Source: an uncultured Acidobacteriota bacterium
Lineage (GTDB): Bacteria; Acidobacteriota; Thermoanaerobaculia; Multivoradales; UBA5704
DNA: 64,000 bases
Assembly (NCBI GenBank): GCA_963770895.1
Contig: CAVYRF010000001.1
Coordinates: 704,481 to 768,480, forward strand
Direction of reading: 5' to 3'
The position numbers were made by a program, and so were the translations under genes. Under the pieces are notes generated by a model, which worked only from the letters and a program-made list of their open reading frames with translations, had not been told where the DNA came from and made no database searches. Every line of letters begins with the position of its first letter. Positions within the stretch are counted from its first letter, which is position 1. Of the stretch, positions 35,197-62,294 are shown in pieces.

Positions 35197-35216
35197 CGCC
35201 CCTCCTGCGCAGCCGT

Positions 35217-35382
35217 TAGTGGCCTGTCCTGGAGAATTCGAAAGCGGATGGCGCCGGCAATCGGCGGCGGGGGCCAGGCGCGCCGACGCAGGCATAGTCG
35301 GAACTATGTCGAGGAGGCGCAACGCCGCACCCGCCGTCGAGGGCAAGCCAGGCGCTTTCGAATTCTCCAGGACAGGCCACTA
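35217..35382. repeat. Perfect 30-bp inverted repeat pair (35217-35246 and 35353-35382) separated by 106 bp
   Basis: Arm 1 (tagtggcctgtcctggagaattcgaaagcg) is the exact reverse complement of arm 2. Each arm contains an internal GAATTC/TTCGAA palindrome. It lies between usp (its upstream region) and the mntH 3' end. Confidence 0.8.
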
Positions 35383-38468: not shown

Positions 38469-39227
38469 ATGAAGACCGTGTCCCGCCTGCTGTCCGTCGC
38501 CGCCTACGGCCTGGTGCGACCGTGGATGCGGCGCCGGGTGGGCCGGACGGTGCTCGAATCGATCGATGGCGTGCCGCTGGTGGTGTTGCCCCAGGTGCTC
38601 AACCCGCGCGTCTTCCGCACCGGCGCCTGGCTGGCGCAGGCGGTGCCGCCGGCTGCCGCGCCGGCGGCCACCCGCCGCGCTCTCGACATGGGCACCGGCT
38701 CGGGCATCGGCGCCATCTTCGCCGCCCGCCGCGGCTATCGCGTGACGGCGCTCGACATCAATCCCCACGCCGTCCGGTGCGCTCGCGTGAACGCCCTGCT
38801 CAACGGCCTGGACCAGCAGATCGACGTGCGGCAGAGCGACCTGTTCGACGCCGTCGCCGGCGAACGCTTCGACCTGGTGCTGTTCAATCCGCCATTTTTC
38901 CCCGGCACGCCGCGCGATCCGCTGGACGCGGCCTGGCGCAGCCACGACGTCATCGAGCGCTTCACCGCCGGCCTGCCCGCGGCGCTGGCGCCGGGAGGGT
39001 CGGCCCTGCTGCTGCTGTCCAGCGCCGGCGGCTCCGACAGCAAGCTCCTGGCCCACGTCCCCGCCCAGCTGCGCGTCGCGCCGGTCTTCCGCCGCGGCTT
39101 TGCCGGCGAAACGATCACGCTCTTTGCCGCCACCTGGGTCCCCGCCGCCAGCGCCAGCGCGGCCCAGGCCGGCGCCGCCCGGCCGCTGGCGGCGCCCGCG
39201 CTGTCCTCCGTGGAGGTGATGCGATGA
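38469..39227 (+). CDS. Class I SAM-dependent methyltransferase (HemK/PrmC-like small-domain family, NPPF motif)
   Basis: 252 aa from an internal Met MKTVS. Motif I is ALDMGTGSGIGAIFAARRG. The motif IV region is DLVLFNPPFFPG. It is the first gene of a five-gene translationally coupled + strand operon. Confidence 0.7.
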   Translation: MKTVSRLLSVAAYGLVRPWMRRRVGRTVLESIDGVPLVVLPQVLNPRVFRTGAWLAQAVPPAAAPAATRRALDMGTGSGIGAIFAARRGYRVTALDINPHAVRCARVNALLNGLDQQIDVRQSDLFDAVAGERFDLVLFNPPFFPGTPRDPLDAAWRSHDVIERFTAGLPAALAPGGSALLLLSSAGGSDSKLLAHVPAQLRVAPVFRRGFAGETITLFAATWVPAASASAAQAGAARPLAAPALSSVEVMR

Positions 39228-40816
39228 GCGCCAGCGTTGCCTCGGCAGGCGTGTCGGGCGCGGCGGCGGGCCGCCAGCGGGTGCTGCTGGTCAATCCGCG
39301 CATGTGCTCGCGCCGCTCGATGCGCCTGCCGCTGTCGCTGCTGTCGCTGGGTTCGGTCCTGGAAGGGCGCTACGACTACCAGCTGATCGACGGCAATGTC
39401 GATCCCGACGCCATCGGCACCGCGCTCGCCGCGCTGGCGCAAGGCGACCATGCAATGGTGGGGGTGAGCGTCATGCCGGGGCCGCAGGTGGGGCCGGCGA
39501 TCGCGCTGTCCACCGCGGTGCGCGCGCACTTCCCGCAGGTGCCGATCGCCTGGGGCGGGTACTTCCCGACCCTCTACCCGGATTCGGCGATCAACGCTTC
39601 GTACGTCGACTACGTGGTGCGCGGCCAGGGCGAAGAAACCCTGCTGGAGCTGCTGGCGCGGCTGCCCGACGCCGGGCCGCCGGCGCCGCCATCCGACTCG
39701 GCTGCCGACGCCGGCGCCCTGGCCGGCCTGGCGGGCCTGACCTTCAAGCACGACGCCGAAGTGCGGCACAACGCCGACCGCCACTTCAAGCCGCCGGACG
39801 ACCTGCCGCCGCTGCCCTACCAGCGCCTGGCCGACGTCACGCCCTACCTGCGCCCGACGTTCATGGGGGCGCGCACCGGCGTGCACCAGGCGGCCCTGGG
39901 CTGCCGCTATCGCTGCAGCTTCTGCGGCGTCGTCACGATGTTCAACGGCGTCACCCGCCTGCAGGGAGCGTCGCGCCTGGCGCAGGCGGTGACGACGCTG
40001 CGCGACAAGTACGGCGCCGACTCGATGCAGTACTACGACAACAATTTCTTCGACCGCGAAGAGAGCAGCGTGCCGCTGCTCGAAGAGCTCGCCCGCCTGC
40101 AATCGCCCTGGTGGTGCTATGCGCGCGCCGACACCATGGCGGGCTTTTCGACCCGCACCTGGGAGCTCATCCGCCAGAGCCGCATGCGCATGGCCTACAT
40201 CGGCGCCGAAGCGGGGAGCGACGCGGCGCTGCGCCAGATGAAAAAGGGGTCGCGCGTCGAAGACACGTTGGAGGTCGCGCGCCTGTGCCGCGCCTACGGC
40301 GTGGTGCCCGAGCTGTCGTTCGTGCTCGGCGGCCCCGACGATCCCGAAGGCGAGGTCGAGCACACCCTGAGCTTCATCAAGCGCATCAAGCAGATCCACC
40401 CCACCTGCGAAGTCGTGCTGTACTTCTACAGCCCGACGCCGCGGCGGGAAGCCGCGTCAGAGGCGACGCGGGCCAGCGGCCTGCGCCTGCCGGTGATGGA
40501 CAACTACGGCCCGGACGGCCCGCCGCTGCCGACGACGCCGCTCGAATGGACCGAGCGCAAGTGGATCGACTACGTGTGCCACCAGGACGCGCCCTGGCTG
40601 TCGCCGCGCCTGCGCCGCCGCGTGCGCGACTTCGCGACCGTGCTCGGCTGCCGTTTCCCGACCGTGCAGGACGCCAAGACCCCGGACTGGGGCAAGGCGA
40701 TCCTGCGCAACCTGTCCCGCTGGCGCTACAGCAGCGGCCTCTACGGCAGCCCCTGGGAGCTGGAGCTGGCCCGGCGCCTGGTGCCCTTGCGCCAGCCGCA
40801 GCGCGAAAGCCTGTGA
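39224..40816 (+). CDS. Cobalamin-binding (class B) radical SAM enzyme
   Basis: The ATG overlaps the previous stop (ATGA). The N-terminal B12-domain-like Rossmann region reads RVLLVNP...VGVSVMPGPQVG...IAWGGYFPTLYPD. The rSAM cluster is CRYRCSFCG. 530 aa. Confidence 0.85.
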   Translation: MSASVASAGVSGAAAGRQRVLLVNPRMCSRRSMRLPLSLLSLGSVLEGRYDYQLIDGNVDPDAIGTALAALAQGDHAMVGVSVMPGPQVGPAIALSTAVRAHFPQVPIAWGGYFPTLYPDSAINASYVDYVVRGQGEETLLELLARLPDAGPPAPPSDSAADAGALAGLAGLTFKHDAEVRHNADRHFKPPDDLPPLPYQRLADVTPYLRPTFMGARTGVHQAALGCRYRCSFCGVVTMFNGVTRLQGASRLAQAVTTLRDKYGADSMQYYDNNFFDREESSVPLLEELARLQSPWWCYARADTMAGFSTRTWELIRQSRMRMAYIGAEAGSDAALRQMKKGSRVEDTLEVARLCRAYGVVPELSFVLGGPDDPEGEVEHTLSFIKRIKQIHPTCEVVLYFYSPTPRREAASEATRASGLRLPVMDNYGPDGPPLPTTPLEWTERKWIDYVCHQDAPWLSPRLRRRVRDFATVLGCRFPTVQDAKTPDWGKAILRNLSRWRYSSGLYGSPWELELARRLVPLRQPQRESL

Positions 40817-42537
40817 CGGACACCCAGCCCGACAGGCTGCCGGCAGCGAAGCTGCCGCTGCGGCACGGCGCCTATGCGTGGCAGACGCGCTGGCGCCCCG
40901 GCGAGCTCGCCACCGCCCGCTTCATGCCCATGGGCCTCCACCTGGAGCTGGTCACCAACAGCCCGCCCCTCCTGGCTGCCGCCCGCCAGTGCTTCGGCGG
41001 CTACGGCGAGCCGGCGCCAGACCGCCCCGTCGATCTCACCCTGAGGCTCTACCAGCACTCCGTCGACGCGCCGGCGCCAGGCGCTGGCGTCGCTACGACC
41101 GCCGCTACGTCCGGCCACCTCGCCACGGCAACGGCCGCCGCCGCCAACCCGGCCGGCACCGCCGGCCTCCCCGACCTGGCCAACACCGCCAACCCCGCCG
41201 ACCAGGGGTTCAACGGGGGCAGCGTCGCGGCGATCCACCCAGTGAGGGCGGCTGCCCTCCCGGAGGCCGGGCCGCCCGGCGCCGCCACGTCCGGCAGCTG
41301 TGTCGCCGCAACCGCCGCCGGCGCCACCCCCGGCTCCGTCGCTGCAACCGCCATCCACGCCTCGACGACCGGCAACGCCGCTGCTGCAACCGCCATCGGC
41401 GCCGCCATGTCTGGCAGCTCTAGCGCAGCAACCGCTGCCGACGCTACGACCGGCAACTCCGCTGCTGCAGCCGCCATCGGCGCCGCCATGTCTGGCAGCT
41501 CTAGCGCAGCAACCGCTGCCGACGCTACGACCGGCAACTCCGCTGCTGCAGCCGCCATCGGCGCCGCCATGTCTGGCAGCTCCGTCGCCGCAACCGCTGC
41601 CGACGCTACGACCGGCAGCTCCAGTGCCGCAACCGCTGCCGACGCTACGACCGGCAGCTCTAGTGCAGCAACCGCTGGCGACGCCACGACCGGCAGCTCC
41701 GTCGCCGCCACCTCACCTGTCGCCGCGATGGCTGGTGCCGCCGCCGGCGGCCGGGACGTGCATTTCTTTGACGGCGGCGCCGCCGGCGCGCCGCTGTCCG
41801 CGCCGATCCTGCGCTGCGAGGGTCCGTATCTCTACCAGGCCAGCGGGTCTGACACGGTGATGGTGGCCGACCGCGGCGCCGGGGTCACCTTCGGCTACCT
41901 GGCCGCAGCGACCGTGGCCGATGCAGCGCACCTCACCTGGCACTACCTGTGGCCGGCGGTTTCCTATCACCTGGAATGCCGCGGTTTTGCCGGAGTGCAC
42001 GCCGCCGCCATCGCGCGGCGAGGCCGCGGGCTGCTGCTGCGCGGCCGCAGCGGCCAGGGCAAGACGACGCTCACCTATGCGGCCACCCGTCGCGGCTGGC
42101 AGGCCGTCAGCGAAGACATCGTATGGGTGGACGCCCGCGGCGCCACCTGGTGGGGCTCGCCCTGGACCTTCCACCTGCTGCCGGACGCCCGCCAGCTCTT
42201 TTCCGAGTTGAGCGGGCGCGGCGTCGCCCTGCAGCCCAACGGCGAAGTCAAAGTGGTGGTCGACATGGAATCCCTCTGGCCCGGCAGCACCCTGCCCAAG
42301 GCCGCGGCCGGCCCGGTGGTCATCCTGGAGCGCCGCCATGGCGGCACCAGCAGCCTGGTCACCCTCGACCCGGCCACAGCGCACCACGAATGGCTGGACG
42401 GCTGCGCCCGCCACGAGCGCCAGGCCCCCGGCTACGACCAGACGGTGGCGGACCTGCTCAGCAGAGGTTGCCACCGCCTCCACCTGGGAGACGACCTGGA
42501 CGGCGCCCTGGACCTGTTGGAGCCGCTCCTGCCATGA
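40813..42537 (+). CDS. HPr-kinase-related Ser/Thr kinase-like P-loop protein with internal Ala/Thr/Ser/Gly-rich tandem-repeat insert
   Basis: The GTG start overlaps the previous stop (GTGA); an alternative start is Met +38. The N-terminal domain reads YAWQTRWRPGELATARFMPMGLHLELV. The 230-aa low-complexity insert is encoded by perfect 81-bp tandem repeats. The C-terminal HprK-like domain carries GAGVTFGYL...HAAAIARRGRGLLLRGRSGQGKTTLTYAA (GxSGxGKT/S P-loop). Confidence 0.7.
   Translation: MTDTQPDRLPAAKLPLRHGAYAWQTRWRPGELATARFMPMGLHLELVTNSPPLLAAARQCFGGYGEPAPDRPVDLTLRLYQHSVDAPAPGAGVATTAATSGHLATATAAAANPAGTAGLPDLANTANPADQGFNGGSVAAIHPVRAAALPEAGPPGAATSGSCVAATAAGATPGSVAATAIHASTTGNAAAATAIGAAMSGSSSAATAADATTGNSAAAAAIGAAMSGSSSAATAADATTGNSAAAAAIGAAMSGSSVAATAADATTGSSSAATAADATTGSSSAATAGDATTGSSVAATSPVAAMAGAAAGGRDVHFFDGGAAGAPLSAPILRCEGPYLYQASGSDTVMVADRGAGVTFGYLAAATVADAAHLTWHYLWPAVSYHLECRGFAGVHAAAIARRGRGLLLRGRSGQGKTTLTYAATRRGWQAVSEDIVWVDARGATWWGSPWTFHLLPDARQLFSELSGRGVALQPNGEVKVVVDMESLWPGSTLPKAAAGPVVILERRHGGTSSLVTLDPATAHHEWLDGCARHERQAPGYDQTVADLLSRGCHRLHLGDDLDGALDLLEPLLP
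41371..41691 (+). repeat. Coding tandem repeats: 3 near-identical 81-bp units plus 2 x 39-bp sub-units (encoding (A)AMSGSSSAATAADATTGNSAAAAAIG repeats)
   Basis: The unit ggcaac(g/t)ccgctgctgca(a/g)ccgccatcggcgccgccatgtctggcagctctagcgcagcaaccgctgccgacgctacgacc is repeated at 41371, 41452 and 41533. Copies 2 and 3 are identical over their first 49 nt and diverge over the rest of the unit. Confidence 0.85.
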
Positions 42538-43721
42538 CGCTCGAAGCAATCGCGGACCAGGAGGCTACACCGCCTGCCGCCGCCGCCGCTGCCGGCGGGT
42601 CGCCTTCCGCCGCCGTCGCCGGTGGCGAGCCGCCACCCGGCGCTGCAGGAGACGCCGGGCGTCTGGCGTGGATGTGCGAGCGGCTGGCCGTTTGGGTGGT
42701 CGCCCCGCCGCCGCAGCCGCCGCCGGCGTGGCCGGCCGCGGCGTGGGAGGACTTTCGTGCCGCCACGCAGGTCCACGGCGTCGGCCCGCTGCTGGGGCGG
42801 CGCCTGGGCGACCGCCAGCCATGGTCGCAGGCGGCAGCCTGGCTTGGCGCCGAGCATGCCGCCAACCGCTTGCGCGTCGAGCGTCTGCACCAGGACTTGC
42901 GCGCGATCCTGGCGCGCTTTGCCGCCGCGGACGTGCCGCTCATGCCGCTCAAGGGCGCGGTGCTGGGGCCGCTCTATTATTCCGACCCCGCGGAGCGGCC
43001 AATGGCCGACCTGGACCTGCTGGTGCGCGCCGAAACGCTGGCGCAGAGCGCCCAGCTGCTGGTCGACATCGGCTATGAGGTGGTCTTTGAAGGCCGCAAA
43101 CACGTCAAGCTGGCGCCGCGCGGCGGCCGTCGCCGCCCGGTCAGCGACGCCGGCGGCGCCAGCGACGGCGACGTTGGCGCCGACGCCGGTGGTAGCCCCG
43201 GCCCCGGCCCCGGCGACCACGAGGCGGCCGGCGAGCACCCCGACAACCCGCGCTGGGTCGAGCTGCATCCGGCCTGCGGCGAATGGCTGGGGGACGAGCG
43301 CATCGATCTGACCGGCCCGATCTGGGCCGGCGCCCGCCGGCAGCCGCTGCTGGGCGAGCCGGCCTGGCTGCCCGACCCGGCGACCCATTGGCTCTACCTG
43401 TTGGTGCATGCCACCCACCACATCCTGATCAATCGCTTCCGTCTCATCCAGCTGCTCGACCTGCTGCTGCTTTGCCCGACGGACCTGTTGGGCGCCGCCC
43501 TCCAGGTCGAGCCGCCCGCCGCCGCGGCCGCCATGGCGCGCGCCCTGTACCCGCCTCTCGCGCTCCTCCAACGGTACTTCCCGGCGGGCGCCACCGCCGC
43601 CGCGACGGCCCTGCGCCAGGACTTGCGCGCGCGGCTGGCGCCCGGCTACGCGGCCTGGGCCGACGGCCTGGACCTGTTCCAGGCTTGCTATCTCGACGCC
43701 GCGCCGTGGAGGGCGCCATGA
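42534..43721 (+). CDS. Nucleotidyltransferase-family protein (pfam14907/NTP_transf_5-like)
   Basis: The ATG overlaps the previous stop (ATGA). 395 aa. The motif PLMPLKGAVLGPLYYSDPAERPMADLDLLV fits the G[SG]...D.D nucleotidyltransferase fold. The C-terminal region reads HWLYLLVHATHHILINRFRLIQLLDLLLL. Confidence 0.7.
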   Translation: MTLEAIADQEATPPAAAAAAGGSPSAAVAGGEPPPGAAGDAGRLAWMCERLAVWVVAPPPQPPPAWPAAAWEDFRAATQVHGVGPLLGRRLGDRQPWSQAAAWLGAEHAANRLRVERLHQDLRAILARFAAADVPLMPLKGAVLGPLYYSDPAERPMADLDLLVRAETLAQSAQLLVDIGYEVVFEGRKHVKLAPRGGRRRPVSDAGGASDGDVGADAGGSPGPGPGDHEAAGEHPDNPRWVELHPACGEWLGDERIDLTGPIWAGARRQPLLGEPAWLPDPATHWLYLLVHATHHILINRFRLIQLLDLLLLCPTDLLGAALQVEPPAAAAAMARALYPPLALLQRYFPAGATAAATALRQDLRARLAPGYAAWADGLDLFQACYLDAAPWRAP

Positions 43722-45148
43722 GCGAGCCTGGCGCCGTCAGCGAGCCGGGCACCGTCGGCGAGCAGGGTGCCGTCAGCGAGCCGGGCGCCGCCAGCGAGCC
43801 GGGCACCGTCAGCGAGCAGGGCGCCGTCAGCGGGCCGGGCGCGGTCAGAGCGCGGGGCGCCGTCAGTGGGCCGCGCGGCATGAGCGGTCAAGGCGCCATG
43901 AGCGAGCGCCCGGTGGTGGTGGTGGTGGGCGACGCCGTGGCGCCCACCGGCTTCGCGCGCGTGCTGCACAGCATTCTGGGGCGGCTCGCCGACCGTTACG
44001 AGTTCCATCACCTGGGGGTCAACTACGGCGGCCAGCCGCACGAGCACGCCTGGCAGATCTATCCCGCGGACGGCGGCGGCGACCTGCACGGCGTGCGGCG
44101 CGTGCGCGACCTGGTGGAAAAGGTGCGGCCCCGCCTCGTCTTCCTGCTCAACGACCCCTGGCTGATGGGCGGCTACCTCGACGCCTTGGGCGATTGCCGC
44201 GCCGGCATCAAGGTGATCGCCTACGCGCCGGTCGACGCCGGCCCGCTGGAGGCGGAGCTGGTGGCGCCGCTCACCGGCCTGGATCACCTGGTGCTCTATA
44301 CCCGCTACGGCCTGCAGGAAATGGAGGCGTCGGCGGCGCAGCTGCGCCGCCTGCGCCCCGACGCGGCCGCCTTCCCGGCGCTGTCGGTCGTGCCGCACGG
44401 CGTCGATTCGGACCTCTTCCGCCCGCTCGCCGGCCCGCCCACGGCGGCGGCGCCCGGCGACTTTGCCGCCTCCCGCGCCGCGGCGCGCCGCCAGCTGTTC
44501 GTCGACCCGGCGCTGCACGACGCCTGGATCGTCTTGAACGCCAACCGCAACCAGCCGCGCAAGCGCATCGACGCGACGATCAAGGGCTTCGCGCTCTTTG
44601 CGCGCGACAAGCCGCCCAACGTCCGCCTCTACCTGCACATGGGGATGGTCGATTGCGGCTGGAACGTGGTCGCCCTGGCGCGCCGTCACGGCATCGAAGA
44701 CCGGCTCATCCTGACCGCCGAGGAGCACTTCCTGCCGGCGGTCGCCGACGATCTGCTCAACCAGATCTACAACGCCTGCGACGTGGGCATCAACACCTCC
44801 CTGGGCGAGGGCTGGGGCCTGGTCAACCTGGAGCACGCCGCCACCGGCGCCGCCCAGGTGGTGCCCCGCCACAGCGCCTGCGCCGAGATCTGGGACGGCG
44901 CCGCCGAGCTCGTCGAGCCCGTCGCCAGCCTCACCATGGAAGGCCTGCTGACCGAAGGCCGCCTGGTCGGCCCCGAAGGGGTCGCCCGCGCCCTCGATCG
45001 CCTGTACACCGATCCCTCCCACCTGCGCCGGCTGTCCGCCGCCGCCTACCAGGTCGCCACCCGCCCCGAATACCGCTGGGACGACGTCGCCCGCCGCTGG
45101 GACGATCTCTTCCAGCAGATGCTGGCGGCCACCCCCACTGCCGTCTGA
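43718..45148 (+). CDS. GT4-family (GT-B) glycosyltransferase with N-terminal S-E-P-G hexapeptide repeats
   Basis: The ATG overlaps the previous stop (ATGA). The N-terminus MSEPGAVSEPGTVGEQGAVSEPGAASEPGTVSEQGAVSGPGAV is encoded by 18-bp repeats. An alternative start lies at MSERPVVVV. The GT-B donor-binding region is INTSLGEGWGLVNLEHAATGAAQVV (E-x7-E). Confidence 0.75.
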   Translation: MSEPGAVSEPGTVGEQGAVSEPGAASEPGTVSEQGAVSGPGAVRARGAVSGPRGMSGQGAMSERPVVVVVGDAVAPTGFARVLHSILGRLADRYEFHHLGVNYGGQPHEHAWQIYPADGGGDLHGVRRVRDLVEKVRPRLVFLLNDPWLMGGYLDALGDCRAGIKVIAYAPVDAGPLEAELVAPLTGLDHLVLYTRYGLQEMEASAAQLRRLRPDAAAFPALSVVPHGVDSDLFRPLAGPPTAAAPGDFAASRAAARRQLFVDPALHDAWIVLNANRNQPRKRIDATIKGFALFARDKPPNVRLYLHMGMVDCGWNVVALARRHGIEDRLILTAEEHFLPAVADDLLNQIYNACDVGINTSLGEGWGLVNLEHAATGAAQVVPRHSACAEIWDGAAELVEPVASLTMEGLLTEGRLVGPEGVARALDRLYTDPSHLRRLSAAAYQVATRPEYRWDDVARRWDDLFQQMLAATPTAV

Positions 45149-45283
45149 GAAAATCGCCGTTGATCTGACCCGCTACCACCGCCCCAGACCACTAGACGTG
45201 CGATCGGGGGGCGTGGTATCTTCTAAAACAAGCAGACCAATGTCGTCCTTCGATCCTGTTTGGATGGGGGAGAGGAGGTAAGC

Positions 45284-45589
45284 GTGGCGATTACGGTTGT
45301 CAATCAGTCGGTCGGTGCTCTGTCCTATACCGTGTTCGGCGGCTCGACTTCGGGTTCGGGCACGGGCGGGTCGGGCAGCAAGGGTTCGGGAACCACGGGC
45401 TCCGGTACCCACGGCTCGGGCGGCGGCTCGGGTGTCGTGGCTTCGGGCGTCGTCGGTCCGGGTGGCACCGCGTCCGGGATCCAGGTGGGTGCAGGCTCCT
45501 ATACCGTGGTCTTCGGGTGGAAAACCTTCCCCAGCTACACGGTTTCGGCCTCGGGTGTGGTCAAGGTGACGACGACCGTCCAGCCGTAG
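45284..45589 (+). CDS. Small 101-aa Gly/Ser/Thr-rich protein, candidate modification substrate
   Basis: Ideal SD (AGGAGG) 5 nt upstream of GTG. The product is VAITVVNQSVGALSYTVFGGSTSGSGTGGSGSKGSGTTGSGTHGSGGGSGVVASGVVGPGGTASGIQVGAGSYTVVFGWKTFPSYTVSASGVVKVTTTVQP. Beta-strand-like ends flank a GS(T)-rich core. A lower-GC leader lies upstream. The gene is located between two convergent enzyme operons. Confidence 0.5.
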   Translation: MAITVVNQSVGALSYTVFGGSTSGSGTGGSGSKGSGTTGSGTHGSGGGSGVVASGVVGPGGTASGIQVGAGSYTVVFGWKTFPSYTVSASGVVKVTTTVQP

Positions 45590-45621
45590 CGCGTTCCGAA
45601 CGGTTGCCAGCGCGGCGCGGC

Positions 45622-46656: not shown

Positions 46657-46659
46657 CCA

Positions 46660-46885
46660 CCTGCAACACGCTCCGCTCACCGCTCGCCTTCACGGCTCGC
46701 GGTTCGCCACCTGCCTCTTGCGGTTCGCCGCTCGCCCTTCACGGCCCGCGGTTCGCCACCCGCCTCTTGCGGTTCGCCGCTCGCCTTCACGGCTCGCGGT
46801 TCGCCACCCGCCGGTTGCGGTTCGCCGTTGCCGCGGCTCGCGGTTCGCCACCCGCCGGCGGCCTTCGACTGGCGGCCTGAGAGGG
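46660..46885. repeat. Intergenic tandem repeat array (about 48-bp units containing ggctcgcggttcgccacc and cttgcggttcgccgctcgcc) between convergent operons
   Basis: caccgctcgccttcacggctcgcggttcgccacctgcctcttgcggttcgccgctcgcccttcacggcccgcggttcgccacccgcctcttgcggttcgccgctcgccttcacggctcgcggttcgccacccgccggttgcggttcgccg.... About four copies are visible. It is followed by a GC-rich palindromic segment. Confidence 0.75.
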
Positions 46886-46895
46886 CGCCGGCGGA

Positions 46896-48320
46896 TCAGG
46901 ACAGGCGTTGTGCCGGGCGCAGGAAGTTGGCGACCTGCTTTTCGATCGGGGCGGCGTAAAAGTCGCGGTCGCAGCGCCAGCGGGCCAGCGCGCGCAGCGG
47001 CCGGCTCCAGGGTCGGCCGGAATCCCAGGCCAGCTGCTGGAAGAATTTGAAGCGCTCGATCAGCCGGTACTTTTCGGGCGACACCCACGGACCGATCGAG
47101 CCCACGAAGTCAAATTCGCTCCATTCGTCCAGCGTGCAGGGGAGGGTGAAGCCGGCGGCCACCGCGTTCTGGGTGATCGAGGTGCCGGGATAGGGTTTGA
47201 AATAGAAAATCGGCGTCTGGAAGTCGGGGCTCATGGCGCGCAGCCGCTTGACCACCTGCAGGGTGGCGCGCACGTTGTCCTCGGTCTCTTCCGGGAAGCC
47301 GACGATGAAGGGGAAGTTGACCGCCACGCCGAACTTGCGACAGCGCTCGGCGACAAAAAAGACCTGCTCCAGCTTGATGTCTTTTTTGATGCGATCCATC
47401 ATTTCCTGCGAGCCCGATTCGACGCCGACCAGCAGGCGGCGCAGCCCCGAGCGCTTGCACTTGGCGAAGACCTCTTCGCTCATGCGCTGGCCCTGGTCGG
47501 CGCGCATGGTGGCGGCCCAGGTGATGGGGAGCTTGCGGCGGATGAGCTCTTCGGCGACCGCTTCGACGCGCTGGGCGTAGGTGAAAAAGGTTTCGTCCTG
47601 GAAGTTCACGTCGTCGTAGCGCGAGCGGTGCCACAGCGCTTCGAGCTCTTCGCCCATGCGCTCGGGCGACAGGCCGGTCCACTTGCGCTGGTAGACGAAC
47701 GGATCGGCGCAAAAGGCGCAGCGGAAAGCGCACCCCTGCGACGAGATGTAATCCAGCTGGCGCTTGCCCTTGAGGCGATAGTACGGTTCGATGTCGATCA
47801 GGCCGTAGTTGTGGACCGCCAGGGTGTTGACGTCGGCCAGCGGGCGGGCCGTGTTCACCTGCGCGGCGCCGTCCTCGCGGTAGGTGCAACCCTGGCAGCC
47901 GGTCAGTGGCCGCCCTTCAGCCAGGCGCTCGACGATCTCGGCAAAGGTGATTTCCCCCTGGCCTTGCACGGTCACGTCGACGCTCGGTTCCGCCAGGCAT
48001 TCGCGGCCGAACATCGACGGGTGCCAGCCGCCCCAGACGACCGGCAGGTCGGCGCGGCTGGCCTTGGCGGCGCGGCTGGCCGCAACCGCGTCGGCGATCG
48101 GCGCCCCGGTGAGCACCGTGACGCCCAGGCAGAGCGCGCCTTCCAGCTCCGCCACCAGGGCGCGGTGTGCCGCTTCGGGGTTTTTGGCCAACCGGGCGTC
48201 CACGACCACCACCTGGTAGCGCTCGGGATCGAGGTGCGATCCGATGGTGAGCAGCGCCAGCGGCATGGTGTAAAAGACCGCGGTCGGGTTGTACAGCACG
48301 ATTTTGTGGCGGCGACTCAT
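46896..48320 (-). CDS. Cobalamin-binding (class B) radical SAM enzyme
   Basis: 474 aa from an internal Met MSRRHKIVLYNP. The B12-like N-domain reads LPVVWGGWHPSMF. The rSAM cluster is CAFRCAFC. The ATG overlaps the upstream stop (ATGA). Confidence 0.85.
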   Translation of the reverse strand: MSRRHKIVLYNPTAVFYTMPLALLTIGSHLDPERYQVVVVDARLAKNPEAAHRALVAELEGALCLGVTVLTGAPIADAVAASRAAKASRADLPVVWGGWHPSMFGRECLAEPSVDVTVQGQGEITFAEIVERLAEGRPLTGCQGCTYREDGAAQVNTARPLADVNTLAVHNYGLIDIEPYYRLKGKRQLDYISSQGCAFRCAFCADPFVYQRKWTGLSPERMGEELEALWHRSRYDDVNFQDETFFTYAQRVEAVAEELIRRKLPITWAATMRADQGQRMSEEVFAKCKRSGLRRLLVGVESGSQEMMDRIKKDIKLEQVFFVAERCRKFGVAVNFPFIVGFPEETEDNVRATLQVVKRLRAMSPDFQTPIFYFKPYPGTSITQNAVAAGFTLPCTLDEWSEFDFVGSIGPWVSPEKYRLIERFKFFQQLAWDSGRPWSRPLRALARWRCDRDFYAAPIEKQVANFLRPAQRLS

Positions 48321-49399
48321 AAGGGCTCCGGGGTCAATGCCAGCGTGCAGACGCATTTGCGACAGATCGCATCGCGGTCGGTGTCCAGGCCGCGGCGCCA
48401 GGCGAGCGCCTGCGGCGAATTGACGATCGCGTCCAGGCTTGCCGCCTGCCGCAGGTTGCCGAGCGGCGGCTGGAAGAAGCACGGCCGCACCGTGCCGTCG
48501 GCTTCGATCACCGTCGACACCCACGGCGCGTTGCAGCGATGCGGCGGAAAATCGCCGTGGCCGCACAGTGCGGCGTAGTAGTCGTAGAGCCGCGCCCGCA
48601 GCTTCGCCGCGCCCTCGACGATGAAGCCGGATGCGAAGTCGGCCGCGTGCTCGCGTTCCAGGGCGTCCAGCTCGCCGGCCAGCCGCGGCAGCTCCTCTTC
48701 GAGCAGCGCCACCTGGCCGGCGCGCGCCGCTTCCCAGGGCTGCGGCCGGTTGAAGGCGTCGCTGCTGACGTCGGCGGCCAGCAGGCTCAACCAGTTCAGG
48801 CCGATCGCGCGGGCCGCCGTGACGGTGCCGCGCAGGTGGGCGAAGTTGGCCCGCTGGACGGTGCAGCGCCCGCCGATCGTCAGCTGAGGCGCGGCTTGGC
48901 GCACCGCCGCCACCCCGTCGGCCAGCTTGGCGAAAGCGCGCGGCAGGTTGCGGATGTGATCGTGCACGGGCTGCGGCCCGTCCAGGCTGACGATCACTTC
49001 GGAGCAGTAGGCGGCGACCTGGGTCGCGTCGCGCCGCAGCAGCAGACCGGTGGACAGCAGGGTGATCGCGATGCCGGCGCGCCGCAGGTGCTCGCACATC
49101 TCCCACAGGTTGCGGTGCAGCAGCGCTTCGCCGCCCGACAGCGCGACCTGGCGCACCCCCATGCGCTGCCATTCGGCAACCCACTGTGCCACCTCGGCCG
49201 CGCCCAGCTCCTGCTTGCCCGGATCGCGCCAGATGTCGCACATCAGGCAGCGGCAGTTGCAGCGGCTGTGCGGGAACAGGATGACGATCGGCAGCCGCTC
49301 GACCGGTTGGGGCCGCGGCAACCCGTCGGCCGCCCCGCCGCTCCACGCGTTGGCCGGCAGCTCGGCGGCCGGCAGCACCGGAAGCACGGTCGAGCTCAC
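48317..49399 (-). CDS. Radical SAM enzyme with C-terminal SPASM/twitch-type auxiliary Fe-S domain
   Basis: GTG start overlapping the upstream stop (GTGA); 360 aa. The N-proximal rSAM cluster reads ILFPHSRCNCRCLMCDIW. The C-terminal Cys-rich region (GDFPPHRCNAPWVSTVIEADGTVRPCFF...CRKCVC) is typical of SPASM domains. Confidence 0.8.
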   Translation of the reverse strand: MSSTVLPVLPAAELPANAWSGGAADGLPRPQPVERLPIVILFPHSRCNCRCLMCDIWRDPGKQELGAAEVAQWVAEWQRMGVRQVALSGGEALLHRNLWEMCEHLRRAGIAITLLSTGLLLRRDATQVAAYCSEVIVSLDGPQPVHDHIRNLPRAFAKLADGVAAVRQAAPQLTIGGRCTVQRANFAHLRGTVTAARAIGLNWLSLLAADVSSDAFNRPQPWEAARAGQVALLEEELPRLAGELDALEREHAADFASGFIVEGAAKLRARLYDYYAALCGHGDFPPHRCNAPWVSTVIEADGTVRPCFFQPPLGNLRQAASLDAIVNSPQALAWRRGLDTDRDAICRKCVCTLALTPEPL

Positions 49400-50385
49400 C
49401 GCCGCTCCAACTCCAGCAGGTAATGGTCGGCCAGCCAGGGCAGCGGCGGCCAGGTTTCGGCACGCCGCTCCCAGCGCCCGAGCAGACGCAGCAGGCGCGG
49501 GTGGCGCGCCGCCCAGCCTTCGGCGTAGGTGGGCGGCAGCAGCGCGCCGACCGCCGCGCGCCGGCGCAGGCGGAAGGCGGGACCGAACAGGCGCCGCAGC
49601 GCGCCGACCGACGGATAGCGGATGGTCAGGCCGCGCCAGCGCGTGCCGCCCGGCCGCAGCCGGCGAAAGGCGCGCCCCGGCTGCGCGTGGCCCAGGTACC
49701 AGGCCCACTCCCACGGCACCAGCGGGCCCATCACGCAAACGACCGCCATGGCGCCCGGCCGCAGGTTTGCCGCCAGCCAGCCCGCCAGCTGCCGCAGGTC
49801 GGCTGGCGCCACGCAGTTGAGGCCGCCGAAGTTGGACAGCACCCCGTCGAACGGCCGCGGCGCCGCCGGTGTGGCGCCGGCAGCAGGTGCGGCAGCGGGT
49901 ACAGGCGCGGTGGCGAGTACAGACGCGACCGCGGGCATAGGCGCAGCGGCGGGTACAGACGCGGGCGCGGGTGCCGGGTCCGCCGGCGGTGATTGCTGGG
50001 GGTGCCAGGGTTGCCGGGGCTGCCGGGTCAGCTGTTCGATGGTCTGGTGGCGCAGATCGACCCGATCGCCCAGGCCGGCGCTCGCGATCTTGTCGCCGGC
50101 GCGTTCCAGCATGCCGGCGGCGGCGTCGATGGCGGTGACGCGCACGCCGCGGCGAGCCAGGTACAGGGCGTCTTCGCCGGTGCCGCAGTTGAGCTCCAGC
50201 ACGTGGCTGCCGGGGGCGAAGCAGGCGTCCAGCCGCCGCCAGACCGCCTGGCGCATCTGCGTGCCGATGGCGCTGCCGGTGAAGCTGGCGTCGTAGGACG
50301 CGGCCATGCGGTCGAACGCGGTGGCACCCGTGGCGTCGCCATCGCGGCGCGCCGGCAGCACGGGGAGGACGGCCGGTTCGGTCAT
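49396..50385 (-). CDS. Class I SAM-dependent methyltransferase
   Basis: Motif I is VLELNCGTGEDALYLARRGVRVTAIDAAAGML. A low-complexity Pro/Ala insert is present. The ATG at 50385 lies 1 codon after the upstream stop. An alternative GTG at 50391 overlaps that stop (GTGA). Confidence 0.75.
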   Translation of the reverse strand: MTEPAVLPVLPARRDGDATGATAFDRMAASYDASFTGSAIGTQMRQAVWRRLDACFAPGSHVLELNCGTGEDALYLARRGVRVTAIDAAAGMLERAGDKIASAGLGDRVDLRHQTIEQLTRQPRQPWHPQQSPPADPAPAPASVPAAAPMPAVASVLATAPVPAAAPAAGATPAAPRPFDGVLSNFGGLNCVAPADLRQLAGWLAANLRPGAMAVVCVMGPLVPWEWAWYLGHAQPGRAFRRLRPGGTRWRGLTIRYPSVGALRRLFGPAFRLRRRAAVGALLPPTYAEGWAARHPRLLRLLGRWERRAETWPPLPWLADHYLLELERR

Positions 50386-50387
50386 CG

Positions 50388-51785
50388 TCACGGCGCCGCC
50401 GGCGACTCCTCGGGCCAGGAGAGCAGCGCCTGGTGCGCCGCTTCCGCCATCTGCAGCTTTTCGGCGGCGTCCGCCGGGTTGTCGGACTGCAGGCGGGCGG
50501 CGGCGACGCTGTTGCGCAGCCACCGGTCGGCCTGTTCGTAGTAGGCGCGCGAGCGCTGGCCGCGCAGCCGGTAGTCGCGGTCGGTGGCGGTATCCCAGCT
50601 CTTGTCGAGCTGCACGCGGTCGGCCACCTGGCGGAAGTAGGCGGTGTTCTTGATCGGGTAGGCGACGGTGGTGAAGAAGATGTTGGGGTTGGCCTTTTTG
50701 ACGTGCTCGACGGTGGCTTCGATGTCGGCCAGCGTTTCGCCCTGGTAGCCCCACATCAGGAACATGCCGACTTCGATGCCGTGGCGCTGGGCGGCGTGGG
50801 TCGCCCACTGCACCTGCTCGGCGGTGACGCCCCGATCCATGGCGTCCAGGATGCGCTGGCTGCCGCTTTCAGAGCCGATCCAGATGCGGTAGCAGCCCAT
50901 TTCGGCGAGCGTCGCGATCACTTCGTCCTTGAGCAGCCGATCGGCGCGCGAAATGGTTTCGAAAGGGCGCACCAAGCCGCGCTTCTTGAGCAGGCCGGCG
51001 AACTCGAAGAGCCAGCGGTGGTGGATGGTGAACACGTCGTCGGCGTACCACAGCTGTTCGGGCTGGTAGGCTTCGACGATGTGCGCCACTTCGTCGGCGC
51101 AGTCGAGCGCGCTGCGCCGGCGATGGGTGTAGCCGAACACGGCGTGCGAGCACCATTTGCAGCGATACGGGCAGCCGCGCGCGGTGATCAGGTTGACGCT
51201 GCCCATGCCGTGGTGGGTGTGCCAAACGTCGACGTAGCGGGCGATGTCGATCTGCTCGCGATCGGGCCAGGGGAGGCTGTCCAGGTCGGCGATCTGTTCG
51301 CGGTCCGGATTGGTGACGACCTCCCCTTCTTCGTCGCGGAAGACCGTGCCGTGCAGGCCGTGCAGACGGTGCGGACCGCGCAGGGCGAGCGCCGGCAGCA
51401 GTTCCGCGAGCGTCGCTTCGCCTTCGCCCACCACCACGACGTCGGCGCCGTGGGCCAGGTATTCGGCCGGGTAGTTGGCCGATTCGGGGCCGCCGAGCAC
51501 CACCGTCCAGCCGTGCTGCCGCGCGGCGGCGATGATGGCGAGGATCGACGCGCGGGTCATCAGGTTGGTGTAGATCCCCACCACGCCGCCGGGAGTGGCG
51601 GCAAGGCGCTGGCGCAGCGCGGCGCGCTCGGCGAACGTGGAATCGAAGATCTCGACGCTGAAACCGGCGCGACGCAGATACGAAGAGATGTAGAGCAGCC
51701 CCAGCGTCGGGTAGGGCTTCATGATCTGCAGCTCTTTGGGATCTTCGTGCAGGAAGTAGCCGTGGGTCAGCAGGATGTCGGCCAT
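50388..51785 (-). CDS. Cobalamin-binding (class B) radical SAM enzyme, tandem paralog
   Basis: 465 aa. The N-terminus is MADILLTHGYFLHEDPKELQIMKPYPTLGLLYISSYLRRAGFSVEIFD. The rSAM cluster is CPYRCKWCSH. Confidence 0.85.
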   Translation of the reverse strand: MADILLTHGYFLHEDPKELQIMKPYPTLGLLYISSYLRRAGFSVEIFDSTFAERAALRQRLAATPGGVVGIYTNLMTRASILAIIAAARQHGWTVVLGGPESANYPAEYLAHGADVVVVGEGEATLAELLPALALRGPHRLHGLHGTVFRDEEGEVVTNPDREQIADLDSLPWPDREQIDIARYVDVWHTHHGMGSVNLITARGCPYRCKWCSHAVFGYTHRRRSALDCADEVAHIVEAYQPEQLWYADDVFTIHHRWLFEFAGLLKKRGLVRPFETISRADRLLKDEVIATLAEMGCYRIWIGSESGSQRILDAMDRGVTAEQVQWATHAAQRHGIEVGMFLMWGYQGETLADIEATVEHVKKANPNIFFTTVAYPIKNTAYFRQVADRVQLDKSWDTATDRDYRLRGQRSRAYYEQADRWLRNSVAAARLQSDNPADAAEKLQMAEAAHQALLSWPEESPAAP

Positions 51786-51786
51786 A

Positions 51787-53367
51787 TCAGTTCCAGCTCT
51801 TGCTCAGGTCGGGCATCGCCGGCGTCGTGTAATCTTTTCGAATCGCCGTCGGCCGTTCGCTGCGGCTGCACGCTTCAAGCCGCCCCAGCTCCAGCCAGGC
51901 GCTGCACAGCTGATCCAGCTCCTGCCGGATCTCCGCATCGGACGCGCCGTCTACAGCCGCAGGCGCGCCGGCGGCGGCGTTTGCAGGCAGGGCGGGCGGG
52001 GCAGGGGCAGCGCCCCGGGACCTGTCGCGCAGGCGCTGGCGGACCAGCAGATCGCGGTGCAGCAGGCGATGCAGGTGGCGATAGAAAGGCGTCTGATAGG
52101 TGCCCTGAAACATCATCGCCAGGTCGTTGCTGTCCTGCCAATGATCCTGCCCGTTGAGCTGGGCCTTGACCATCTCATGGAAGCGCGTGCCGGGCAGCGG
52201 GTAGCTGACGCTGATGCCGATCTCGTCGGGCAGCGTGTCGCGCACCAGCTGCACCGTCTGCTCGATGTCTTCAAAGGTTTCACCGGCGTAGCCGAACTGC
52301 AGGAAATAGCAGGCGCGGATGCCGGCGTCGCGCAGACGCTCGCGCACCACCGGGATCTGGCGCGCGTCGGTGCCCTTGTCCATGGCGTCCAGGATCTTCT
52401 GGCTGCCGCTTTCGACCCCCAGCCAGACCTCGTGGCAGCCGGCCTTGGCCAGGCCGGCCACGGCTTTTTCCGTCATGAGGTCGATGCGCGACTGGATCTT
52501 GAACGGGATCGAGCCGTCGAGCGCCGTCACCCGGTCGGCAAATTCGGCGACCCAGCGCGGCTGCAGGCCGAAGATGTCGTCGGCAAACCAGATCAGGTCG
52601 GGCTTCAGGCTGCGCTTCAGCAGCGCCATCTCTTCGGCCACGCTGGCCGGCGAGCGCATGGCGTAGCGCTGCCCCCAGATCGGTTTTGCGCACCAGTTGC
52701 AGTGGAAGGGGCAGCCGCGGGTGCTCACCATGTTGAGGCTGAAGTAGCCGTGGGCGCCGCGCCAGGCATTGCGGTAGCGTTCCACGTCGAGCAGGTCCCA
52801 GGCCGGCAGCGGAAAGACGTCGGGGTGGCGCTCGACGGCGCGCGAGCAGGTGCGCTGCACCCCGTCCGGCGCCGCCGGATCGGGGATCGCGAGGCCGGCC
52901 ACTTCGTTCACGCACCGGCCGTTGGCGCGGCCGGCAAGGATGTCGACCAGCTCGCCCAGGGTGTGATCGGCTTCGCCGGCCAGCACGTATTGCACGCCCT
53001 CGCGGAAGTACACCTCGGGATGATCGGACGCGTCGGAGCCGGCGGCGATCACCGTGGCGCCGGCGGCGCGCGCGTGCCGGCTCATGTTGCAGCCGGCGCG
53101 GCGGCTGTGCGCCAGACACATCTTATTGAGAAAGTTGAATTGATCTTCGTAAAGGGCGACGATAGCCGGTTGCGTTTCGGCCAGGAGCCGTTCGAACTCC
53201 TCTTCGCCATCGGCCAGCATGGCGTCGAACAGCGCCACCGAATAGCCGCGCCGCCGCAGTTCGCTGGCCGCGTACAGCGTGCCGAGCGGCGCGTAGGGCG
53301 ACATCTTTTCGATCTGCTTCGGATCATTCTTCAGAAAGAACGAATGGGCGAGGAGGATGTCGGTCAT
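51787..53367 (-). CDS. Cobalamin-binding (class B) radical SAM enzyme, tandem paralog
   Basis: 526 aa. The N-terminus MTDILLAHSFFLKNDPKQIEKMSPYAPLGTLYAASELRRRGYSVALFD is paralogous to the neighbouring gene. The rSAM cluster is CPFHCNWC. It is the first gene of the minus-strand operon. Confidence 0.85.
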   Translation of the reverse strand: MTDILLAHSFFLKNDPKQIEKMSPYAPLGTLYAASELRRRGYSVALFDAMLADGEEEFERLLAETQPAIVALYEDQFNFLNKMCLAHSRRAGCNMSRHARAAGATVIAAGSDASDHPEVYFREGVQYVLAGEADHTLGELVDILAGRANGRCVNEVAGLAIPDPAAPDGVQRTCSRAVERHPDVFPLPAWDLLDVERYRNAWRGAHGYFSLNMVSTRGCPFHCNWCAKPIWGQRYAMRSPASVAEEMALLKRSLKPDLIWFADDIFGLQPRWVAEFADRVTALDGSIPFKIQSRIDLMTEKAVAGLAKAGCHEVWLGVESGSQKILDAMDKGTDARQIPVVRERLRDAGIRACYFLQFGYAGETFEDIEQTVQLVRDTLPDEIGISVSYPLPGTRFHEMVKAQLNGQDHWQDSNDLAMMFQGTYQTPFYRHLHRLLHRDLLVRQRLRDRSRGAAPAPPALPANAAAGAPAAVDGASDAEIRQELDQLCSAWLELGRLEACSRSERPTAIRKDYTTPAMPDLSKSWN

Positions 53368-53520: not shown

Positions 53521-53653
53521 GCACCGCGCGCGCCAGATCGGGGCCGCGCGCCGCCAGACGGCCAGCCCGATCCGGGCCGCGCGCCGCCAGGCGGCCAGCC
53601 CGCATGCCGCCTGGCGAGAGGTGCCGGAGAGACAGCGGGGAACCGGCCTTCCT

Positions 53654-60144: not shown

Positions 60145-60172
60145 CCTCGCCGCCGGCGCGCGGCGCGCTGGT

Positions 60173-61190: not shown

Positions 61191-62294
<1,104 letters not shown>

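Follow-up and report, generated by a model that had tools for sequence, protein, structure and literature searches.

We analysed a 64,000-nucleotide stretch of DNA from an uncultured Acidobacteriota bacterium (the window; contig CAVYRF010000001.1, positions 704,481 to 768,480 of the forward strand) that carries, at 38469-53367, a convergent island of enzyme genes and among them a 101-aa, Ser- and Gly-rich open reading frame (the small ORF). The description that fits the island best is that of a small-protein modification cassette of a kind not reported before, joined to a widespread module of radical S-adenosylmethionine (rSAM) enzymes and methyltransferases. The cassette (module B) consists of the genes for an HprK/ScmC-like P-loop protein (G4), a nucleotidyltransferase (G5), a family 4 glycosyltransferase (GT4; G6), the small protein and a sulfotransferase-fold protein (G7), together with an upstream gene for a cobalamin-binding rSAM enzyme (B12-rSAM; G3). 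Module A comprises G2, G3 and G8-G12, that is, four B12-rSAMs, one SPASM rSAM and two methyltransferases, and G3 is the sole gene common to both modules. We tentatively read module B as a cassette that would phosphorylate, glycosylate and perhaps sulfate the small protein, with module A as a separable partner.

The G+C content of the window is about 72%, and a plain list of its ORFs consists mostly of shadow frames; genes were therefore called by third-position GC and frame, with starts picked by context. The plus-strand operon contains seven genes: G2 (38469-39227), a HemK/MTS-type SAM methyltransferase with an NPPF motif (PF05175, E value 5e-16); G3 (39224-40816), with B12-binding and Radical_SAM Pfam domains and the motif CRYRCSFC; G4 (40813-42537); G5 (42534-43721), with an NTP_transf_5 nucleotidyltransferase fold (PF14907, E value 8e-31); G6 (43718-45148), a Glycos_transf_1/Glyco_trans_1_4 protein; the small ORF (45284-45589), which has a GTG start behind GGAGAGGAGG; and G7 (45622-46656). 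The minus-strand operon contains five: the B12-binding rSAM genes G12 (51787-53367) and G11 (50388-51785), the class I SAM methyltransferase gene G10 (49396-50385; Methyltransf_25), the radical SAM/SPASM gene G9 (48317-49399) and a further B12-binding rSAM gene, G8 (46896-48320), the rSAM assignments again being from Pfam. An earlier first-pass annotation, made from the sequence alone, had listed eleven enzymes, the 101-aa ORF, a 48-bp repeat and a divergent DtxR/MntR-family gene, and all of these were recovered where it had placed them by gene calls, Pfam and Tandem Repeats Finder (TRF). The translational coupling that it proposed for both operons is borne out by 4-bp start/stop overlaps (ATGA or GTGA) at six junctions (G2/G3, G3/G4, G4/G5, G5/G6, G10/G9 and G9/G8); at G11/G10, an overlap of the same kind with the G11 stop arises only if G10 begins at an alternative GTG, at 50391. 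Its picture of two operons around the small ORF is correct as to their convergence, but the small ORF and G7 lie inside the plus operon, and the point of convergence is the repeat-bearing gap at 46657-46895. Identical 101-aa and 344-aa ORFs were called by a separate gene caller on another assembly.

None of the island proteins belongs to a named functional family as far as the libraries searched can tell: in NCBIfam, all of them scored far under the curated cut-off of every equivalog, including HpnJ, BchE, ApyD, rSAM_ocin_1, ScmC/E/F and HprK_rel_A/B. A Pfam scan of every gene in 34780-56049, the scope of all Pfam negatives below unless another is given, found no lasso, lanthipeptide, YcaO, peptidase or RRE/PqqD domain (RRE, recognition element of peptides that are ribosomally synthesized and modified after translation [RiPPs]), in agreement with the first-pass statement that no class-defining RiPP enzyme is present; an exporter was not found among these genes either. 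PDB-sequence searches, which were run for G3, G4, G5, G8, G9 and G11, returned only remote superfamily relatives (AprD4, OxsB, TsrM, TokK, CysS, BlsE and SkfB).

The small ORF encodes a genuine conserved protein family that is rare in public data. Its homologues form 37 clusters of 82-101 aa, and a profile search of 1.84 billion representative proteins gave 19 matches, of which about half are large repetitive proteins aligning to the low-complexity part. A Clostridia match from the genome scan (L007) was judged spurious, as its 37% identity was confined to the low-complexity stretch. Neither Pfam nor NCBIfam gave a match to the small ORF, and hence no nitrile-hydratase-like (NHLP) or Nif11 leader was detected. 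In the family alignment both ends are strongly conserved and length variation is confined to the G/S-rich stretch, and AlphaFold predicts seven beta-strands arranged as a beta-sandwich (strand pLDDT, the per-residue confidence score, 70-78) with a disordered Ser-Gly repeat loop inserted at about residues 22-48; a leader-core peptide, which we had considered, was rejected on these grounds. The loop of the window protein contains about seven GSGx units, and its strand 1 ends in N7-Q8-S9. Of the 54 family members examined, 52 retain an N-x-[ST] tripeptide where strand 1 ends, in the variants NQS, NKT, NET, NQT, NHS, NDT, NFT, NNT, NFS and NGT, and this pattern of conservation appears typical of a recognition sequon. 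No promoter or terminator was seen after the small ORF in a consensus scan, a type of scan that is uninformative for this phylum.

The small protein varies among the related loci (which we number L001 and so on). In L092 the small protein reads MGITYVN followed by 13 copies of GSGT[NH]; the C-terminal half of the sandwich is missing, and the ORF is recognisable only via its position and its N-terminus. The L094 protein has 141 aa and a loop with eight copies of PSGSGAW. SG dipeptides number 8-23 in cassette proteins versus 2-4 in repeat-less relatives. Across L092, L094 and the window, the Ser-Gly repeat is thus what has been retained and expanded, and it looks like the functional element of the protein.

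The cassette recurs as a unit. A co-occurrence check of the kinase, nucleotidyltransferase and B12-rSAM genes had been suggested in the first-pass annotation; besides the window, 10 loci show the order G3-G4-G5-G6-small ORF-G7, at small-ORF identities that fall to about 46% and with G6 identity of 53-70% across all cassette loci. The contexts of small-ORF homologues show a fixed order of methyltransferase, G3, G4, G5, G6, small ORF and G7 in L001-L004 and in L005 and L006, two loci from Acidobacteriota metagenome-assembled genomes (L006 is cut inside G3), and the small ORF always lies between G6 and G7 (window, L001-L006, L063, L092 and L094). L092 and L094 were reached by searching with G6, their G6 proteins being 53-56% identical to that of the window. 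In both, the plus-strand set runs from two SCO1 genes through a cytochrome c/PBP6 gene, a UbiE-type methyltransferase gene, G2, G3, G4, G5, G6 and the small ORF to G7, and on it converge G8-G12 in L092 and only G8 and G9 in L094, with a beta-propeller gene next in both. The convergent arrangement of both modules is the same in L001 and L092 as in the window, and L094 has a reduced version of it.

The enzymes of the cassette differ in how closely they resemble known families. G4 scored 18.5 bits against Hpr_kinase_C (cut-off, 33.3) and 29.2 and 30.8 bits against the NCBIfam HprK-related kinases TIGR04352 and TIGR04355 (cut-offs, 200 each), with E values of 1.6e-7 to NCBIfam HprK_rel_B and 0.24 to PDB HprK sequences. 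Its P-loop, GRSGQGKTT, has the Walker-A form GxSGxGK[ST], the string SGxGK[ST]TL is invariant in nine aligned homologues, and G4 homologues match PF27840 (ScmC) weakly. G5 matched NTP_transf_5 (PF14907) with 107.9 bits (cut-off, 31.2) over profile positions 2-248 of 249; it retains the DxD motif of the nucleotidyltransferase fold, and its KG...RPMADLDLL motif is conserved as KG...RPMxDLDLL in eight homologues. A literature search on PF14907 returned nothing related. In L092 the homologues of G4 and G5 are fused into one protein of 684 aa (L092 7950-10004), which is strong evidence that the two act together and are functionally linked. G6 is a GT4 enzyme by both of its Pfam domains (31.0 and 32.0 bits; cut-offs, 26.4 and 27).

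G7 has no match to the sulfotransferase Pfam families Sulfotransfer_1, _2 and _3, and its assignment comes from structural matches, which point to a sulfotransferase fold with the protein-tyrosine sulfotransferases TPST1 and TPST2 among the top. It carries SLPRSLST, which resembles a 5'-phosphosulfate-binding (PSB) loop, and RPVPDVAAS, which resembles a 3'-phosphate-binding (PB) motif. Across the family, SLPRSLS[ST] and R-x7-[SAT] resemble the PSB and PB motifs, and neither the PSB-loop Gly nor the PB Ser is conserved; one homologue, P0081, bears PF13469 and PF00685. Several enzymes of the island also contain in-frame tandem repeats or low-complexity inserts: an A/T/S/G-rich insert of about 250 aa in G4 (41283-41712), unique to this genome, a genome-specific (GAVSEP)n extension at the G6 N-terminus (43711-43877), an insert in G7 (about 45950-46100) and one in G10 (49884-49972). 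As all four are absent from the homologues, this genome tolerates repeat expansion inside enzymes.

Part of the cassette is older than the rest. Stand-alone genes for G6-like GT4 enzymes in L091, L093 and L095, all from other Acidobacteria, have beside them one or two repeat-less ORFs of 82-94 aa whose homology to the small ORF is supported by an hhalign probability of 87.8% (E value 3e-6) and by reciprocal hidden Markov model (HMM) matches; these repeat-less proteins, which include paralogue pairs, are encoded at L091 11422-12010, L093 5501-6286 and L095 9674-9922. L093 and L095 have a G7-like gene as well, and the L091 contig ends about 1 kb past its GT4 gene. Because the repeat-less homologues adjoin stand-alone G6-like and G7-like genes, an older trio of small beta-sandwich protein, GT4 and sulfotransferase-fold protein exists, and this suggests that an undescribed three-gene unit is widespread. 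A protein closely related to the L093 GT4 carries the label Pyrinomonadaceae.

Several cassette loci contain further genes of note. In L001, which is more closely related to the window than any other locus, G6 and the small ORF are separated by an additional ORF of 71 aa (9567-9782) that resembles a cysteine-rich secreted peptide (MKRALLLLLALS...CPITCLQAQQQCTQTC...), and at 11599-13768 L001 has a 2-oxoglutarate-Fe(II) oxygenase gene and a polysaccharide pyruvyl transferase gene where the window has only the tandem repeat. G7 is followed by genes for a TonB-dependent receptor and a VTT/DedA-family membrane protein in L002 (10999-13518), L003 (8338-10845) and L004 (10996-13649), and in L063 that position is taken by an unannotated 637-aa gene. 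Neither near the cluster nor beside the TonB receptor genes of related loci did an Rfam search detect any regulatory RNA, and L002, L003, L004 and L063 yielded no cobalamin riboswitch.

In module A, the motif CxxxCxxC is present in all five rSAM proteins (CAFRCAFC in G8, CPYRCKWC in G11 and CPFHCNWC in G12). G3, G8, G11 and G12 exceed both the B12-binding and the Radical_SAM Pfam cut-offs and so belong to the B12-rSAM superfamily, and G9 is above the cut-off for both Radical_SAM (52.3 bits) and SPASM (41.6 bits). The NPPF motif of G2, which is also TIGR00537-like at a score under cut-off, is of the (D/N)PP(Y/F) type that is typical of amide- or amine-directed methyltransferases. Against rSAM_ocin_1 (TIGR03975; cut-off, 281.85), the B12-rSAMs scored 57.5, 61.2, 72.4 and 54.9, and for G11 and G12 all NCBIfam matches were under cut-off. 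The nearest solved relatives of G8 and G9 are AprD4 (E value 1e-13) and BlsE (E value 1e-9), respectively, both of them remote and both sugar-modifying rSAM enzymes.

A metagenome scan with the G3 alignment provided 80 loci of at least 327 relatives, which were compared with all window proteins by tblastn and by a G3 tree. G3 identity in cassette loci is 64-79%; G3 homologues of 64-70% identity are also found with G2 and G8-G12 and with no small ORF within 10 kb (e.g., L015, L018, L025, L031 and L061), and L025 and L061 have exactly the arrangement G2-G3 / G8-G9-G10-G11-G12, which is the window minus module B. On the G3 tree, G4-G7 and the small ORF are restricted to one clade, and the small-ORF HMM matched the six-frame translations of cassette loci only, out of all loci. 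In the loci with module A only, a scan found no other G/S-rich ORF and gene-level clustering found no conserved alternative small ORF; a six-frame all-against-all comparison of these loci was swamped by shadow frames. G2 is directly upstream of G3 in at least 23 loci. More distant G3 clades have, in addition, a GT4 gene immediately behind G3 (21 loci), genes for family 2 glycosyltransferases (GT2) and a fused ABC exporter (14 loci). The small-ORF family, with its 37 clusters, is much rarer than the G3 family, with at least 327 loci. Since dozens of loci carry the rSAM/methyltransferase set but lack the small ORF, module A is an independent, far more widespread and separable module that cannot depend on the small ORF.

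The first-pass annotation had treated the island as one unit, and this view fails on the many loci in which module A has no small ORF within 10 kb; its proposal of an undescribed modification system is fair for the small ORF with G4-G7, which are tightly linked and reach no equivalog cut-off, but not for the whole island. It had also named a case that would speak against it, the same genes conserved around a known pathway with the small ORF absent. The rSAM set is indeed found in this way, with GT4, GT2 and ABC exporter genes, but the pathway is not a known one. The products of large neighbouring genes were considered as alternative substrates and are not supported, as they are inconsistently present (L015u is membrane-protein-like, and L025u and L061u are beta-propellers).

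Some neighbours of module A in other loci are of interest in their own right. MEDS-sensor hybrid histidine kinase genes lie upstream of G2-G3 in L018 (6899-9031) and L031 (6992-9043), and a window gene on the minus strand (1268-3724), about 35 kb from G2, groups with them in BLAST clustering. Beside distant G9-G8-G2-G3 clusters, L083 (1333-6548), L084 (2-5126) and L075 (1338-6534) have a divergent block of seven or eight genes, taken as cytochrome c maturation (ccm) genes from a 56-aa ORF resembling CcmD alone. Together with the SCO1 and cytochrome c/PBP6 genes, this ccm-like block hints at a periplasmic redox or copper link.

How might the cassette work? Genes for an HPr-kinase homologue, a nucleotidyltransferase and a sulfotransferase co-occur elsewhere as a peptide-tailoring set, in which the kinase phosphorylates Ser, and in lasso peptide clusters of Firmicutes the addition of one or two hexoses to the Ser phosphate depends on the nucleotidyltransferase PsmN (PMC6993621; PMC8498205). 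By analogy, we infer that G3-G7 with the small ORF form a dedicated small-protein modification cassette whose substrate would be the 101-aa protein, a beta-sandwich made in the cytoplasm and displaying a flexible Ser-Gly loop and a conserved N-x-S/T. G4 would phosphorylate Ser hydroxyls in the repeat loop, as PsmK does on its peptide, and G5, like PsmN, would then add a hexose or a nucleotide-derived group to the phosphate. G6 would glycosylate the small protein, much as the GT4 enzyme GtfA O-glycosylates Ser-rich repeats, and G7 would sulfate a sugar, Ser/Thr or Tyr. The older core would consist of G6, G7 and the small protein, and the Ser-Gly repeats, G4 and G5 would have been added to it in the cassette lineage. 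Module A would carry out C- and N-methylation and radical chemistry on a substrate for which the small protein is not needed. Because of its GT4, GT2 and ABC exporter partners, the polysaccharide-type locus on the same strand (see below) and the remote sugar-modifying relatives, that substrate is most likely a glycan or glycoconjugate, a choice that we hold weakly; where both modules are present, module A may act on a glycan borne by the small protein. A bolder form of the same idea, which we regard as unlikely, is an acidobacterial "mini-proteoglycan" in which the loop, the N-x-S/T or both would be phosphorylated, phosphoglycosylated, glycosylated and sulfated and the B12-rSAMs would C-methylate the glycan or the protein; it would constitute a new class of modification with an ancient three-gene core widespread in the phylum.

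Several observations weigh against modification of the small protein by this cassette. The lasso kinases target a C-terminal Ser, which the small protein lacks, and the similarity of G4 to HprK is weak and under every curated cut-off. AlphaFold confidence for the small protein is moderate (overall pLDDT 62), and the N-x-S/T could be a structural motif and not a modification site. The protein has no signal peptide, and no exporter is encoded in the window. The motifs of G7 for binding the sulfate donor 3'-phosphoadenosine 5'-phosphosulfate are only partly conserved, and distant relatives of G7 stand alone in unrelated contexts. Finally, L021 has G3-G4-G5-G6 followed by cytochrome c and SCO1-like genes, with no small ORF or G7 within 10 kb; the enzymes G3-G6 can therefore exist without an adjacent small ORF.

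Of the alternatives, the one we take most seriously, while considering it rather doubtful, is that synthesis or tailoring of a glycan or glycolipid, such as a methylated, phosphorylated or sulfated exopolysaccharide or lipid-linked oligosaccharide, is the task of the entire island. The small protein would then play an accessory part, for instance as chaperone, regulator or structural partner. It would account for the recurrence of the rSAM/methyltransferase set without the small ORF, often with a GT4 gene directly after G3, GT2 genes and a fused ABC exporter, and for the polysaccharide locus directly upstream of the rSAM operon, with its EpsC-like acetyltransferase, GT4, Wzx-like flippase and GT2; the FkbM-methyltransferase/GT4 fusion in the extended neighbourhood and the sugar-modifying AprD4 and BlsE as nearest solved relatives of G8 and G9 are also consistent with it, although these matches to solved structures are weak (E values 1e-13 and 1e-9). 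However, no priming glycosyltransferase, polymerase or chain-length regulator was found by Pfam within 38469-53367, and in the literature surveyed the combination of HprK-like, NTP_transf_5 and sulfotransferase proteins is documented only as a peptide-tailoring set. The fixed position of the small protein, its lineage-specific Ser-Gly expansion and its pairing with GT4 and G7-like genes outside the rSAM context argue for a direct relationship. We also considered lipid biosynthesis (branched glycerol dialkyl glycerol tetraethers or hopanoids) by the rSAM set, for which the sole support is sub-threshold matches to HpnJ, HpnR and a ladderane-type B12-rSAM; the neighbourhoods contain no lipid genes, and a literature search gave no link to these genes.

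A classical RiPP pathway, in which the precursor would be C-methylated, cross-linked or epimerised by the five rSAMs, N-methylated by G2 and G10 in the manner of a proteusin and then glycosylated or phosphorylated and released as a natural product, is quite improbable. The convergence of the B12-rSAMs and the SPASM enzyme on the small ORF, in a two-module layout shared by the window, L001 and L092 (L094 being reduced to G8 and G9), would fit such a pathway, as would the weak matches to rSAM_ocin_1, ApyD and ScmC/ScmE. Yet all RiPP-family scores are far under cut-off, orthologues of the rSAMs (64-76% identity) occur in many loci with neither a small-ORF homologue nor another G/S-rich ORF, and the small-ORF family is far rarer than that of G3. 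Moreover, conservation of the small protein shows no split between leader and core, the protein is predicted to fold, and Pfam scans found no protease, RRE/PqqD protein or exporter in the window. The first-pass suggestion of RiPP or glycoprotein maturation is therefore retained only in part, since the small ORF is tightly linked to kinase-like, nucleotidyltransferase, GT4 and sulfotransferase-like genes but is not a leader-core peptide. The least credible explanation is a chance juxtaposition of unrelated operons, with a small ORF of unrelated function. The modules are separable, the window version has been rearranged by a 20-kb insertion, and the tandem repeat and the DtxR gene are incidental, all of which would fit this explanation; but the order G3-G4-G5-G6-small ORF-G7 is kept in the 10 further loci at small-ORF identities as low as about 46%, the convergent pairing with G8-G12 reappears in L001 and L092 (with G8 and G9 only in L094), and G4 and G5 are fused in one locus. 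Recurrence of the arrangement excludes chance for practical purposes.

The cluster also extends beyond the limits drawn in the first-pass annotation. At 14163-14855, 14830-16980 and 16962-17810 on the plus strand, Pfam identified genes for a SCO1/SenC protein, a cytochrome c/Peripla_BP_6 fusion and a UbiE-type methyltransferase, homologues of which immediately precede G2-G3 in L092 and L094 and, in part, in L016 and L021 as well. On the minus strand, Pfam and tblastn located genes for an unknown 393-aa protein (10228-11409) and an FkbM-methyltransferase/GT4 fusion (11443-13359), homologues of which flank the cassette in L002, L004, L005 and L063. Because these homologues of cassette neighbours sit at 10228-17810, the cluster is split in the window by a segment of about 20 kb. 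The segment contains a thioredoxin-like gene, a gene for a three-module nonribosomal peptide synthetase of 4115 aa (22101-34448, plus strand; four condensation, three adenylation and four PP-binding stretches and one thioesterase by Pfam), and genes for Usp (34780-35346, minus), an Nramp/MntH manganese transporter (35403-36812, minus) and the DtxR/MntR-family regulator (37606-38271, minus); a glyoxalase/VOC gene lies at 37037-37417 on the plus strand. The first-pass annotation had counted the DtxR/MntR gene as part of the island, and we considered it as the island regulator. This was rejected, as the gene adjoins the Nramp and Usp genes, with which it forms a unit also present in L001, and L092 and L094, where the cluster is unsplit, lack it; the regulator goes together with mntH next to it.

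The 48-bp tandem repeat (3.8 copies by TRF, 46680-46856) lies in the convergent intergenic gap. A functional RNA or binding array was rejected: within the window the motif occurs only here, its fold z-score is -0.14, and it has no Rfam match. The repeat is absent from the related loci, and L001 has other genes at that position. A second tandem repeat, of 33 bp and 2.2 copies (53524-53602), lies in the gap upstream of G12, before the preceding minus-strand gene. Directly upstream of the rSAM operon and on the same strand is the polysaccharide-type locus (53654-64000, minus), with genes for an unknown protein predicted to have a hydrophobic segment at its N-terminus (53654-54901), an EpsC/CysE-like acetyltransferase whose N-terminus is a proline-rich (AVEPxP)n stretch (54913-56049), a GT4 (56828-58531), a Wzx-like flippase (58537-60783) and a GT2 (60173-61063), all on the minus strand, as well as a Glu/Leu-dehydrogenase-like gene and an EamA transporter gene.

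If the small protein is indeed the substrate, the cassette would represent a modification system with no described counterpart in the libraries and literature searched. Phosphorylation followed by phosphoglycosylation, and perhaps sulfation, has so far been documented in that literature only on lasso peptides, and the target here would be a folded protein whose repeat number evolves fast. It would provide a testable function for the family of small beta-sandwich proteins, for the G7 family and for the pairing of ScmC/HprK-like and NTP_transf_5 proteins, and a genetic handle on Acidobacteria, a dominant yet poorly studied soil phylum. The rSAM module, with its four B12-rSAMs, SPASM enzyme and methyltransferases in at least 327 loci, is a promising place to look for radical chemistry on glycans that is new. 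More generally, what looks like one "island" in a lone genome can consist of fused modules, which are told apart only by comparative context.

Compared with known systems, the window shares with the maturation of polytheonamide-type proteusins the presence of several B12-rSAMs and SAM methyltransferases, here including G2 with its NPPF motif, beside a small ORF. It differs in that no leader was detected in the small ORF, the rSAM_ocin_1 scores are only 55-72 bits against 282, and the rSAM set mostly occurs without the small ORF. The SynChlorMet (Scm) cassette, defined in NCBIfam, likewise has an HprK-related P-loop protein with rSAM/SPASM proteins, and G9 matches ScmE and ScmF weakly, but the equivalog scores are not reached (ScmC for G4, 20.7 versus 125; ScmE and ScmF for G9, 57.4 and 44.1 versus 400 each), and a PqqD homologue, which is part of the Scm cassette, was not found by Pfam. 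The Scm cassette, as described in NCBIfam, has no B12-rSAMs, nucleotidyltransferase, GT4 or sulfotransferase-fold protein. In Xanthomonas, the small secreted peptide RaxX is Tyr-sulfated by the adjacent sulfotransferase RaxST; here, too, a small gene product lies beside a sulfotransferase-fold enzyme, with TPST1 and TPST2 among its structural matches, whereas there is no peptidase-containing ABC exporter (PCAT), G7 has no sulfotransferase Pfam match, and the Ser of the 3'-PB motif is not conserved in its family.

Serine-rich repeat adhesins of Gram-positive bacteria are O-glycosylated in the cytoplasm by the GT4 enzyme GtfA together with GtfB, and the window resembles that system in having a GT4 beside a Ser-rich, low-complexity repeat substrate made without prior export. 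In contrast, the substrate here would be tiny, with neither signal peptide nor LPXTG motif, there is no accessory Sec system, kinase-like, nucleotidyltransferase, sulfotransferase-fold and rSAM partners are added, and the host is diderm, as TonB-dependent receptor genes in related loci indicate. Ser-Gly repeats combined with a glycosyltransferase, a kinase and a sulfotransferase follow the logic of proteoglycan assembly; the resemblance to serglycin-type cores is one of analogy only, as nothing here gives evidence of the xylosylation and glycosaminoglycan chains of eukaryotic Ser-Gly proteoglycans. The closest parallel in enzyme types is the tailoring set of Firmicutes lasso peptides (PadeK/PsmK, PsmN and a putative sulfotransferase), in which the same three types of enzyme stand beside a ribosomally made substrate, G4 and G5 being likened to them by enzyme type and not by sequence. 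The asparagine-synthetase-like macrolactam synthetase (C), the transglutaminase-like leader peptidase (B or B2) with its RRE protein (B1) and the ABC exporter of lasso clusters were not found by Pfam, and G4 is under all HprK-related cut-offs. In lasso clusters the substrate is a peptide ending in Ser; in the cassette described here the substrate would have about 90-140 aa, a fold and Ser-Gly repeats in its interior, and it would be served by a GT4 and B12-rSAMs in addition to the three shared enzyme types.

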